Assembly: GCF_057098645.1 (NCBI RefSeq)
Contig: NZ_CM169472.1
Length of the DNA: 64,000 nucleotides
Strand: one strand, 5' to 3'
The position numbers are program-made. Below are positions 3,001 to 6,000 of this stretch, piece by piece. Each line of letters begins with the position of its first letter. Position 1 is the stretch's first letter.

Positions 3001-6000
3001 TTCTGATATCGGGGTTGCAAGTTTAAAAATACATTATTGTCTCTGGAATGAAGAGGAATACAATGAAAAATTATCAGTTCCTCCAGTAATTGATGATATC
3101 CCTTCATTACAAAAAAATACTATTGTTTTTCCTAGCGAAGGTAATTTCCCGTGGTCAATATTTAGTAATGACTCGGTAATGTGGGAAACTCAAATCAGTC
3201 AGGATGAATTTGAAAATGCATACTGTCTGATGATTTGGGCAGATCCCATTGGTAGTGCTGCTTTTTTTGATGGTAGTCAATACTGGAAAGGTGTACTCAG
3301 AATTGATGATATGTCTACGCTAAAGGATAATAAAAAGGATGAAGGAAAGAATTATGTAAATCACATTACCGAGGTAAATCTGAAAATATCACAAGGGGTT
3401 ATTTCATATTTTATTGATTTGGTTGAAAAATACAGCTCCGATAGTTTTAATGAACTGAAACTAATACATGATGAAATAAAAAAAGGAAACAGAAATGCAC
3501 TGGGGAGATTAGGTGTAATGGGTCTATCCATAGGGGATAATGATACATGTTATATGTCTATGGCAGTTGATGTTTATGAAGCTAAAAACAGAAATGATAC
3601 AGGCAGGAAAGAAGATCTTTACGATGGCAATTATTATAATGAGCAACGTAAAGTAGCCTTCGGTCCTGATGGTGGTTGTATAAATAACAATCCAATATAT
3701 TACGACCCTGATCATACAACACCTTTCAGCCCTTATTTTGCAGTAAAAGTTAAATGGGGGCAATCAAACATTAGCATATATGATTTTAAATCACCAATAA
3801 AGCAACTATATGCCGAAATGATACGTATTGGTAATGATGGGCGTATATACAGTAATGAGGGCTTTTCTAATCTCAATTGGGGGATTATTGGAAAACAACT
3901 CGAACTTACAAGTAAAGATATGAAAGGTTTTGCTGCTCTTGATCCGAGGTCAAATCATGATGAACATGACGATGCAGCCACAGATATGGGGTATGAAATA
4001 GCAGGTTCGGCTACTTCAGATAAAAATTACCCAGTAAAATTTGACCGGAGGACATTATTTTTCCTCACACTAAAATCACTCAGGGAAAATGATCTCTTTA
4101 CTTGTTTAGGTGCTGAGACTTATAAAGCAAAACAGGAAGCTTTAAAGACAGATCAACAAACCAAAAGATGAAGATAAGCGCTGGAAATTTATGAATAGTG
4201 TTTATCTCATAATAAAAAATCAATGATTTTATCAACGGGAGTGCCGCCTATGCGAGCTGTTATTGTTAAATCATCACCAACATCTACAGGTGGAAAAGTT
4301 TTACTGGGAATAGATATCGTTACAAACGATGGCAACCCCGTTGCTCTTATAGGTATGCAGGCATCCTGTCCTGCCTGTAAAAAAGGTATCGGTGATATTG
4401 TTGCCAAAGGGCCACACCAACAATTTATTAATGGTATAGCGATTGCTCTTGAAGAGGATGTTGTTGCCTGTGGCTGTCCTGAAGGAAGTAATATAGTTTT
4501 ACCATTGACTAAATTGACACAAATTAAATGAGAATCGGTCCCGTTACAATAAACACCTTACTATTAAAATTATGGACCTATTTATATATTAATTCCTTTA
4601 CCCCATAAAGCGGTAAAGGAATCATGTATCATTGGCACTAATAATAAGTCTGAGCACAGATAGTCAATTGTATCACGACGTCTGTTTCAGGCGGCGGGCA
4701 TACTGGTAAGTCGAAACACACCCGTCGTTGTTTGCATCAAGATAATCCGCCCACCACGGCTTCATCTCGCTCCGTTCCTCCAGATATTCAGCCTAGTGAA
4801 TATAAGCAGTCCGAACACGGTTTCTTTCCTGATAGCTCATCTATTTCCGATGGTTTCTTTGCTCCATAACTCCGATCACCGGGAAAATTTTGATTTAGCA
4901 TTTATCAGTCAAACAAAAGGTGGTCAGTCTGGTGGTCTTGACAATCTCAATTTTTTGTTTTAGCTTACCAATCAGCCAGTTAATGGCTACGGCGATCCCA
5001 GTCAGAGGAGCCAAATTCTAAAAATTCGCTTTTTTACCGCAATGTCACTGACCTTAGTTGAACATTGTTTTTTAACGGATAGCGGGTTTTTAACATCTTA
5101 AGCGCCCTCGACCTTTATGGGTGAGGGCGTTTTGCTATGAACGCCATCACCATTTTCCCCTCGATTATAAAACTTGAGTTATTCAGTAGTCTCCCCTCTT
5201 GCAACTCACACCCAAAACTGCCTAACGAAAAGTTATTAATTTTCAATCATATTGCTATCAGGATTTACATTTTTTCGCTGTGCTAGAAAGGGCGCATTTA
5301 TGTTAGCTCGTTCAGGGAAGGTAAGCATGGCTACGAAGAAGAGAAGTGGAGAAGAGATAAATGACCGACAAATCTTATGCGGGATGGGAATTAAACTACG
5401 CCGCTTAACTGCGGGTATCTGCCTGATAACTCAACTTGTGTTCCCTATGGCTGCGGCAGCACAAGGTGTGGTAAACGCCGCAACCCAACAACCAGTTCCT
5501 GCACAAATTGCCATTGCAAATGCCAATACGGTGCCCTACACCCTTGGAGCGCTGGAATCGGCCCAAAGCGTTGCCGAACGTTTCGGTATTTCGGTGGCTG
5601 AGTTACGCAAACTCAACCAGTTTCGTACGTTTGCTCGAGGTTTTGATAATGTCCGCCAGGGTGATGAACTGGATGTCCCGGCACAAGTTAGTGAAAATAA
5701 TTTAACCCCGCCACCGGGTAATAGCAGTGGCAACCTTGAGCAACAAATAGCCAGTACTTCACAGCAAATCGGGTCTCTGCTCGCCGAGGATATGAACAGC
5801 GAGCAAGCGGCAAATATGGCGCGTGGATGGGCCTCTTCTCAGGCTTCAGGCGCAATGACAGACTGGTTAAGCCGCTTCAGTACCGCAAGAATCACGCTGG
5901 GCGTGGATGAAGATTTTAGCCTGAAGAACTCCCAGTTCGATTTTCTCCATCCGTGGTATGAAACGCCTGATAATCTCTTTTTCAGTCAGCATACTCTCCA

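Follow-up and report, generated by a model that had tools for sequence, protein, structure and literature searches.

A stand-alone PAAR tip protein at the 3' end of a VgrG module in an orphan T6SS-2-like island of Escherichia coli

The gene at positions 4250 to 4531 (plus strand) of the 64,000-nucleotide stretch of DNA that we analyzed, here called the window, encodes a stand-alone PAAR tip protein at the 3' end of a conserved four-gene VgrG module, a reading to which we give a probability of about 0.93. The protein has 93 amino acids and no toxin extension, and its assignment draws on Pfam, RefSeq (WP_001202999.1), an AF2 model, Foldseek, and dN/dS. Its three degenerate PAAR repeats would fold into a small conical β-structure. 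[quoted passage not shown] An earlier note on this DNA had suggested a PAAR-like tip protein and had kept a cognate immunity protein or a chaperone as the alternative; the finding confirms what is routine annotation, a PAAR gene beside a VgrG gene, and eliminates both alternatives.

Family assignment and predicted fold

The open reading frame starts with the ATG at 4250, ends with the stop codon at 4529 to 4531, and specifies the sequence MRAVIVKSSPTSTGGKVLLGIDIVTNDGNPVALIGMQASCPACKKGIGDIVAKGPHQQFINGIAIALEEDVVACGCPEGSNIVLPLTKLTQIK. An alternative in-frame ATG lies upstream, at 4223. We prefer the start at 4250 because a Shine-Dalgarno-like GGGAG, read from the sequence at 4237 to 4241 (plus strand), stands 8 nt 5' of it and because RefSeq uses the same start; there is no comparable motif before the ATG at 4223. 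RefSeq names the product "PAAR domain-containing protein." The 93-amino-acid protein is a genuine PAAR protein whose identity was already in the RefSeq annotation. The dN/dS values against orthologues were 0.09 to 0.18 for divergent pairs and 0.30 for the closest one, and purifying selection on the gene is clear between lineages. An ORF on the minus strand (4207 to 4407) overlaps the gene; we rejected it as mechanical, since it belongs to no family and purifying selection acts on the plus-strand frame.

The earlier note had proposed HMM searches with PAAR, DUF4280, and DUF4150 models as a check. The PAAR HMM came out well above threshold: Pfam PF05488 (PAAR_motif), for which the cut-off is 27, scored 59.1 bits (E value of 5e-16), a match that chance cannot explain, with residues 9 to 77 of the protein placed on profile positions 3 to 67 of 70. 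It was the sole Pfam family found at an E value of 1 or less, and close homologues of the protein carry a precomputed PF05488 match. In the same scan and at the same limit, neither DUF4280 (the IglG type) nor DUF4150, whose accessions we take to be PF14107 and PF13665, respectively, matched the protein. The NCBIfam equivalog-domain model NF033420 (T6SS_PAAR_dom) returned a sub-threshold 17.6 bits (E value of 0.0031) against a curated cut-off of 124, so the protein lies outside that narrowly defined subfamily and inside the broader PF05488.

How far the family could be seen depended on the search. A word-indexed homologue search returned only eight close relatives, and an exhaustive search of representatives revealed the wider family. 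A profile built from 62 relatives matched the solved PAAR proteins 4jiv (E value of 0.001), 6p1z, 7pq5, 8gra, and 4jiw (E value of 0.07). When the single sequence was searched against PDB sequences, no PAAR protein was reached, and we saw a chance match to the RNF4 zinc-finger protein (E value of 0.46). The best PHROG match was phrog_5348 (E value of 1.6e-17), whose function is listed as unknown in PHROG; phrog_281, which is annotated as PAAR motif, matched weakly (E value of 1.9e-4).

PAAR proteins of the prePAAR, or transmembrane-effector, class have an N-terminal AARxxDxxxH motif, transmembrane domains, and an Eag chaperone gene. The N terminus here reads MRAVIVKSSPTST, the protein has no prePAAR motif and no transmembrane segment, and the module has no DUF1795 gene. 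The protein has neither a signal nor a membrane-spanning segment, in contrast to the small protein encoded just before the cargo, and no hydrophobic N terminus is visible in its sequence.

Two PAAR-like segments had been pointed out before, and both are present. Residues 28 to 40, GNPVALIGMQASC (4331 to 4369, plus strand), end in Cys40, and residues 62 to 74, GIAIALEEDVVAC (4433 to 4471, plus strand), end in Cys74; the sequence and the alignment of relatives both mark them as PAAR-type repeats. The count of two was short by one, however, since a further repeat at residues 2 to 15, RAVIVKSSPTSTGG (4253 to 4294, plus strand), had been missed. This first repeat aligns to the family consensus xxIxxGDxTTTGG, and its residues T11, G14, and G15 are nearly invariant among relatives. 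"Degenerate" was a fair word for the repeats: a literal P-A-A-R is absent from all three, and where the family consensus has G-D (positions 8 and 9, 35 and 36, and 69 and 70), this protein reads S-S, G-M, and E-D. Structure prediction had also been proposed as a check, and here too the result favored a PAAR protein. The AF2 model of the protein is all-β (pLDDT of 90.3, pTM of 0.81), and its six best Foldseek matches in the PDB were all PAAR tip proteins (4jiw, 4jiv, 4ku0, 6p1z, 9vyi, and 9f4b), with TM-scores of 0.63 to 0.76 and probabilities of 0.99 to 1.00. The three repeats are therefore predicted by the model to form a conical all-β structure like that of solved PAAR proteins.

Cysteines and the predicted metal site

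The protein contains four cysteines in a CPAC pair (C40 and C43; 4367 to 4378, plus strand) and a CGC pair (C74 and C76; 4469 to 4477, plus strand), as the earlier note had said, and its suggestion that they could bind metal gains from their conservation and from their alignment to residues implicated in zinc binding in the PAAR protein of enteroaggregative E. coli (EAEC). Among 155 aligned relatives, cysteine is kept at C40 in 154, at C43 in 147, at C74 in 150, and at C76 in 134. The aligned counterparts of C40, C74, and C76 in EAEC PAAR are C41, C74, and C76, the three cysteines that are needed for its zinc content and for T6SS killing (PMC10715212). In the profile alignment to 4jiv, Cys74 also falls on the cysteine that precedes the C-terminal Gly. 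His46 of EAEC PAAR has no aligned residue here; C43 precedes that position by three residues within the same loop.

The residue at position 13 was informative for C76. In 17 of the 18 relatives that have His at position 13, C76 is replaced (Fisher P = 5e-18), a ligand swap that mirrors the redundancy of H14 and C76 in EAEC PAAR (PMC10715212). From the alignment, we infer that the four thiols cluster at the apex of the cone, where C40-P-A-C43 and C74-G-C76 would be the two halves of a predicted four-cysteine metal site. One metal ion, most likely zinc, would be bound by C40, C43, C74, and C76 and would hold the apex together, and this all-cysteine site would be a version of the His/Cys site in characterized PAAR proteins. 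If so, the predicted CPxC...CGC apex, which runs through the clade, and the H13/C76 swap are a natural counterpart to the mutational redundancy of EAEC PAAR.

The VgrG module and competing readings

The module has the order vgrG, small transmembrane protein, cargo of about 400 amino acids, and PAAR, and this order recurs in five loci. The first gene (394 to 2508, plus strand) encodes a VgrG/TssI spike of 704 amino acids (TIGR03361, 587.6 bits; tssI in RefSeq) with Phage_GPD, Phage_base_V, and Gp5_trimer_C domains, to which the PAAR cone is predicted to bind. Gene linkage speaks for this pairing, as PAAR shares an operon-like block with a TIGR03361 VgrG in every locus examined. The second (2513 to 2931, plus strand) encodes a small protein with an N-terminal membrane anchor, 139 amino acids long in strain RM9872 by alignment, which is a candidate immunity protein; in the window the gene is frameshifted at an A7 tract (2516 to 2522) that is A8 in most strains. 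Homologues of this protein occupy the same position in the four other loci, and in one of them (L005) a second copy lies downstream of PAAR. Neither it nor a 152-amino-acid protein of the island had a Pfam match. The third gene (2903 to 4171, plus strand), after VgrG, encodes the cargo, a putative effector of 422 amino acids and unknown function, and the PAAR gene begins 78 nt past its stop at 4171. We infer that the small membrane-anchored protein is probably the immunity protein and that the cargo is an effector. About 60 nt past the PAAR stop, the fold of 4532 to 4650 (-23.2 kcal/mol, z = -2.9 versus shuffles) includes an 11-bp hairpin at 4592 to 4622 (plus strand) with no T tract, a possible operon-end structure; a consensus terminator scan found none after the PAAR gene on the plus strand.

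The island lies at tRNA-Asn, and tssF and tssG are divergent from the module and upstream of it. Its layout reads integrase, HTH, hyp152, tssG, tssF, and, divergently, vgrG, a swappable immunity/cargo cassette, and PAAR. Islands of this layout are found at different tRNA sites and in more than one genus, and they have no genes for sheath, tube, or membrane complex. The island VgrG, TssF, and TssG are 24 to 28% identical to the EAEC proteins and 48 to 53% identical to the O157 T6SS-2 proteins; the island is thus an orphan, T6SS-2-like one. A literature search on this island type and on T6SS in O145 found nothing specific to the vgrG-cargo-PAAR module.

Strains RM9872 and E7-1N7 differ very unevenly along the island. 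Identity is 98% for TssG, 95% for TssF, and 93.5% for PAAR and drops to 42% for the cargo and 26% for the small protein. VgrG residues 1 to 550 are 92 to 100% identical per 50-residue window (mostly 94 to 100%), and residues 551 to 704 are 50 to 76% identical. DNA homology resumes within the cargo gene, from window position 3752 onward, at 85% identity. Loci L003 and L004 carry one and the same PAAR protein beside cargos that are only 36% identical. Across strains, then, the module keeps its VgrG core and its PAAR and swaps the VgrG C terminus, the small protein, and most of the cargo. Because PAAR is constant while the cassette is swapped, we read it as a structural part of the delivery tip and not as the partner of one toxin. 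PAAR and the VgrG core flank a recombining cassette for an uncharacterized effector family that is found across Enterobacterales.

Whether the tip protein is in use in this genome is a separate matter. The window is 100% identical to E. coli O145:NM FWSEC0002, and O145:H28 has been reported to be without OI-7/T6SS-2 and without T6SS-1 or T6SS-3 genes (PMC5567499 and PMC9144400). At the aspV locus of RM9872, only hcp remains, and blastn of O145 genomes found no second tssF beyond the island copy, a DNA-level result that divergent clusters could escape. The view of a host without T6SS thus draws on those two surveys, a check of one locus, and one DNA-level search. Because O145:H28 is reported to be without a complete T6SS, the PAAR protein is probably idle in O145:H28/NM unless a compatible machine of the T6SS-2 type is present or acquired. 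We lean slightly toward the stronger statement that the PAAR gene is a nonfunctional relic in this genome, intact only for want of elapsed time. Besides the missing T6SS-1, -2, and -3 clusters, this statement draws on the frameshift in the adjoining small gene, on the adhesin gene downstream, which is interrupted by an insertion sequence (IS), and on an island whose T6SS genes are limited to tssF, tssG, vgrG, and PAAR. On the other side, purifying selection is clear between lineages. Furthermore, the query region (window 2400 to 4700) was matched in 29 of 5,426 complete E. coli genomes, and 28 of these 29 carriers have an intact PAAR ORF of at least 99% identity, which is proof neither for nor against selection inside the lineage. 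A relic would concern present activity and is compatible with PAAR identity. With the module in enterohemorrhagic E. coli O145, a lineage reported to have no complete T6SS, the reason why islands of tssF, tssG, vgrG, and PAAR persist and move between sites is of interest.

It is unlikely, in our estimate, that PAAR acts mainly as an effector-specific adaptor, such that the cargo loads via PAAR, for example through its tail PLTxLTQ[IV]K, and not via the VgrG C terminus. The C-terminal third of the cargo is co-conserved with PAAR, because DNA homology resumes inside the cargo gene at 3752, and cargo residues 285 to 332 are its most invariant block. The close clade shows no variation at P85, L86, T87, or K93 in the PAAR tail, and 117 of 154 relatives of the PAAR domain are extended at the C terminus, which marks this lineage as one regularly coupled to cargo. 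However, the last 150 residues of VgrG diverge along with the N-terminal part of the cargo, as is expected if the cargo docks on VgrG; the tail is a low-confidence part of the AF2 model (pLDDT of 49 in the last block); and in EAEC, Tle1 docks on VgrG (PMC10715212).

A more far-reaching and quite doubtful reading treats PAAR as the constant gene that anchors the 3' end of a mobile wedge-and-spike cartridge, whose own TssF, TssG, VgrG, and PAAR would plug into a resident machine of the T6SS-2 type and deliver a new effector family. If that were true, an all-cysteine PAAR with a conserved C-terminal tail would be the dedicated tip of the cartridge.

Another reading makes the 93-amino-acid protein the cognate immunity protein, neutralizing the 422-amino-acid cargo in the producing cell. 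The gene is small and lies directly downstream of a putative effector, which is the commonest position for an immunity gene. However, the product matches PAAR proteins by HMM and by fold, has neither a signal peptide nor a membrane segment, and does not covary with the cargo (93.5% versus 42%, and identical PAAR proteins beside cargos 36% identical); the upstream small membrane protein covaries with the cargo instead (26%) and has an extra, orphan-like copy 3' of PAAR in L005, which is common among immunity genes. With PAAR nearly invariant where the cargo cassette diverges, we regard an immunity function as very improbable, and the chaperone reading fails on the same grounds. That the protein tips the spike of a phage tail, a tailocin, or some other contractile injection system is hardly credible, for although the best fold matches include several phage PAAR proteins (T4 gp5.4, phiKZ gp163.1, and the P1 and KP1 baseplate proteins) and PHROG families match, the adjoining spike is a T6SS-type VgrG (TIGR03361, 587.6 bits) with tssF and tssG as neighbors, and the module has no phage tail genes.

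Comparison with known PAAR systems

The stand-alone PAAR protein described here resembles that of the Sci-1 T6SS (T6SS-1) of EAEC 042 (EC042_4537; WP_000033410.1), which has been characterized experimentally: it is a zinc-binding protein, cryo-EM shows it on top of VgrG, and neither baseplate recruitment nor killing proceeds without it (PMC10715212). Both proteins are small and stand alone (88 amino acids in EAEC and 93 here), and they share 31% identity over 75 residues (E value of 4e-9). Both genes end a block of vgrG, effector, and immunity genes, the latter two being putative in the window; the Sci-1 order of vgrG, tle1, tli1, tli1, and PAAR (PMC10715212) agrees with the remark in the earlier note that a PAAR gene after an effector gene is a known T6SS arrangement. 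The EAEC site consists of His14, His46, Cys41, and Cys74, with Cys76 as a back-up (PMC10715212), whereas the protein here has Thr at position 13, Lys at position 45, and a second cysteine, C43, that completes the CPxC...CGC all-cysteine set. Finally, a complete T6SS-1 cluster surrounds the EAEC gene, and the gene here belongs to an orphan T6SS-2-like island.

The founding PAAR structures, reportedly those of Shneider et al. in 2013, are 4JIV and 4JIW, which we take to be VCA0105 of Vibrio cholerae and c1882 of E. coli CFT073, respectively. The protein here shares their size (93 amino acids), their cone fold as predicted (TM-scores of 0.74 to 4jiw and 0.63 to 4jiv), and the C-terminal ligand cysteine. 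It differs from them in sequence: identity is 18 to 20%, so that the kinship can be recognized by profile or fold and not by a single-sequence search. The zinc ligands of VCA0105 and c1882 are three His and one Cys (PMC10715212). In the PAAR-like IglG protein of Francisella (DUF4280), metal binding at the tip has been ascribed to four cysteines, as is predicted here (PMC5014421, cited via PMC10715212); our protein, with no match to DUF4280 or DUF4150, is instead a canonical member of PF05488.

The closest relatives in sequence, 35 to 55% identical to the protein here and with the same CPxC...CGC motif, are mostly N-terminal PAAR domains of the PAAR-CT polymorphic toxin kind. Such domains presumably correspond to the CDD classes PAAR_CT_1 and PAAR_CT_2. 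Most of these relatives (117 of 154) continue from the PAAR domain into an extension of 100 to 500 amino acids. In contrast, the 93-amino-acid protein ends about 10 residues past its PAAR domain, and its cargo is encoded by a separate upstream gene.

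The PAAR gene and its product

The gene at 4250-4531 (+) is intact and encodes 93 aa; its start is the same in RefSeq and lies 8 nt from a Shine-Dalgarno-like GGGAG (4237-4241, +). It begins 78 nt past the stop of a 422-aa open reading frame (2903-4171), the putative effector or cargo, which is itself preceded by the VgrG gene (394-2508). The PAAR reading frame is under purifying selection, with a dN/dS of 0.09 to 0.18 against orthologues (dS 0.9 to above 2). About 60 nt past the PAAR stop is a stable hairpin without a T tract (4584-4629; inner stem of 11 bp at 4592-4622), which is possibly an operon-end or mRNA-stabilizing structure; the folded region that includes it has an energy of -23.2 kcal/mol (z = -2.9).

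The earlier note read this product as a PAAR-like tip protein with two PAAR-like segments and four cysteines in CPAC and CGC pairs, to be checked by HMM searches and structure prediction. Both segments, GNPVALIGMQASC (residues 28-40) and GIAIALEEDVVAC (residues 62-74), and the cysteines, C40-P-A-C43 and C74-G-C76, are present in the translation of the + strand, but an N-terminal third repeat, RAVIVKSSPTSTGG (residues 2-15), which aligns with the family consensus xxIxxGDxTTTGG, had been overlooked. PF05488 (PAAR_motif) matched at 59.1 bits (E = 5e-16) against a gathering score of 27 and was the sole family in a Pfam scan reporting matches at E <= 1, in which DUF4280 and DUF4150 were negative. 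The narrow NCBIfam equivalog NF033420 was not reached (17.6 bits versus a cutoff of 124).

An exhaustive HMMER search gave 217 representative relatives. A profile from 62 relatives matched the solved PAAR proteins 4jiv (E = 0.001), 6p1z, 7pq5, 8gra, and 4jiw, and the alignment behind it was the input for an AlphaFold2 model that was all-beta and of high confidence (pLDDT 90.3, pTM 0.81). When the model was compared with the PDB by Foldseek, the best six matches were all PAAR spike-tip proteins (TM-scores of 0.63 to 0.76, probabilities of 0.99 to 1.00): E. coli c1882, V. cholerae VCA0105, T4 gp5.4, phiKZ gp163.1, and the phage P1 and KP1 baseplate proteins. Matches 7 and 17 were chains of a T6SS VgrG-cargo complex at low probability, and the remainder were unrelated noise. 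The family match and the predicted fold support the tip protein reading, and the 93-aa protein is a canonical, stand-alone member of the PAAR family. Its name in public annotation is already correct (RefSeq lists the identical WP_001202999.1 as a "PAAR domain-containing protein"), and its behavior is that expected of the family. The leads of more interest lie in its context, namely, the recurring tssG - tssF / vgrG - cassette - PAAR island and an uncharacterized cargo family.

A swapped cassette in the VgrG-PAAR module

The upstream gene encodes a T6SS VgrG (TIGR03361, 587.6 bits; domains Phage_GPD, Phage_base_V, and Gp5_trimer_C), and two genes separate it from PAAR, one for a small protein with a hydrophobic N terminus and one for the cargo. 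This module, in the order VgrG (704 aa), small membrane protein (107 to 139 aa), cargo (384 to 454 aa), and PAAR (93 aa), recurs with homologous genes in one Superficieibacter genome, E. coli E7-1N7, and two metagenome contigs, one of which has just the last three genes. The contig of locus L005 carries an extra small-protein copy downstream of PAAR; orphan immunity genes are often found as additional downstream copies. The small membrane-anchored gene (2513-2931, +) has an A7 tract at 2516-2522 where O145 strain RM9872 has A8 and an intact 139-aa product, so that its frame is broken just past the start codon, which could be decay, a homopolymer sequencing error, or slipped-strand switching. 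The annotation pattern of the other listed O145 genomes suggests A8; in the two strains that match 2400-4700 of the window exactly, RefSeq leaves the gene unannotated.

Amino acid identity between RM9872 and E7-1N7 was 98% for TssG, 95% for TssF, and 92 to 100% (mostly 94 to 100%) per 50-residue window for VgrG residues 1 to 550. It was 50 to 76% in VgrG residues 551 to 704, 26% in the small protein, 42% in the cargo (about 40% in its first two-thirds), and 93.5% in PAAR. Against the E7-1N7 locus, the swapped cassette covers approximately 2040-3750 of the window (the last 150 VgrG residues, the small protein, and two-thirds of the cargo), and the flanking sequence is 85 to 92% identical as DNA. 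Such a pattern is characteristic of an effector cassette exchanged through recombination within its conserved flanks. It suggests that the cargo would dock on the VgrG C terminus and that the small membrane protein would be the immunity factor.

PAAR could instead be an adaptor that loads the cargo. DNA homology between RM9872 and E7-1N7 restarts within the cargo gene, from 3752 onward, so the last third of the cargo protein, where its most invariant block (residues 285 to 332) lies, is co-conserved with PAAR; the PAAR tail residues P85, L86, T87, and K93 are invariant in the close clade, and 117 of 154 relatives of this PAAR domain bear C-terminal extensions. We nevertheless consider this role unlikely, as the end of VgrG diverges together with the N-terminal part of the cargo. 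The steadiness of PAAR across the two strains rules out the earlier note's alternatives, a cognate immunity protein or a chaperone, since a toxin-specific partner would diverge with its toxin; an identical PAAR (P0003) also adjoins cargos just 36% identical in loci L003 and L004.

The cargo, in which no Pfam domain was found, may represent a new family of T6SS effectors. It has a TssJ-like N-terminal sandwich, a helical C-terminal domain without a structural match, and a strongly conserved block, RIGNDGRIYSNEGFSNLNWGI (residues 308 to 328). Its homologues are unnamed "hypothetical" proteins of E. coli, Salmonella enterica subsp. salamae, Atlantibacter, and Rahnella. Downstream of PAAR, a very large inverse-autotransporter/Ig-like repeat adhesin gene (5252-14640) is split by an IS3-family element (about 8186-9399; orfA 8186-8512, orfB 8509-9399) whose position varies among O145 strains; the gene is intact in E7-1N7 (2,659 aa; L008 27992-35971).

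The island in its O145 host

Across 25 kb, the window shows 100% identity to E. coli O145:NM FWSEC0002. Its segment 2400-4700 has matches in 29 of 5,426 complete genomes of the species, almost all of them O145. The module sits in an integrase-bearing island beside a tRNA-Asn gene, as in E7-1N7. The only other T6SS genes of the island are tssG and tssF, which diverge from vgrG; it also carries an HTH gene and one for an unknown protein of 152 aa. TssF, TssG, and VgrG are 48 to 53% identical to O157:H7 T6SS-2 proteins and 24 to 28% identical to those of enteroaggregative E. coli (EAEC) T6SS-1. O145:H28 lacks OI-7, the O157 T6SS-2 island (PMC5567499), and has 5 of 22 T6SS-2 genes and none of T6SS-1 or T6SS-3 (PMC9144400). 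Where O157:H7 Sakai carries the whole T6SS-2 cluster at aspV, RM9872 retains only one gene of the Hcp family plus a truncated fragment (L010 17929-18408), with no sheath genes at that site, its T6SS parts being scattered (hcp; island tssF, tssG, vgrG, and PAAR). No second tssF was found by blastn in O145 genomes. From these surveys, this one-locus check, and this DNA-level search, PAAR is probably without a firing apparatus in its O145 host.

The order integrase, integrase-domain, HTH_35, 152/153-aa unknown, tssG, tssF / vgrG, variable cargo genes, and PAAR recurs (window 1-4531, with upstream genes at L001 9081-22133; L008 14890-27197; L009 13792-29325; L003 3803-10282), and sheath, tube, TssE/K, and membrane-complex genes are absent from this layout in the loci compared. 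The MFDS1022581 island adjoins a tRNA-Val/Lys cluster and has DUF4123, another cargo, and another PAAR; Superficieibacter has a shorter tssF - vgrG - x - y - PAAR form between mfd and lolC-like genes. The repetition of this architecture points to a "wedge plus spike" unit that is stable and mobile, not to random decay of a full cluster.

Cysteines and comparison with characterized PAAR proteins

Among 155 aligned relatives, C40 is found in 154, C43 in 147, C74 in 150, and C76 in 134. Position 13 is His in 18 relatives, 17 of which lack C76; of the 137 without His13, 133 retain C76 (Fisher P = 5e-18, which ignores shared ancestry; the sequences with His13 may belong to a single clade). The PAAR protein of EAEC 042 Sci-1 is 31% identical to ours (E = 4e-9), with its C41, C74, and C76 opposite C40, C74, and C76 and its H14 opposite T13. 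It contains zinc by ICP-OES, and its killing needs C41, H46, and C74, with H14 and C76 mutually redundant (PMC10715212). The natural alternation of H13 and C76 parallels that redundancy and thus points to a predicted all-cysteine metal site, C40/C43/C74/C76, at the cone apex.

The module layout resembles the EAEC Sci-1 order vgrG - tle1 - tli1 - tli1 - PAAR. By sequence, the nearest known proteins are the PAAR domains of PAAR-CT toxins, whereas the protein here stands alone. Compared with characterized PAAR proteins, which use a mix of His and Cys, its main differences are the four cysteines of the predicted site and its place in an orphan T6SS-2-like island.
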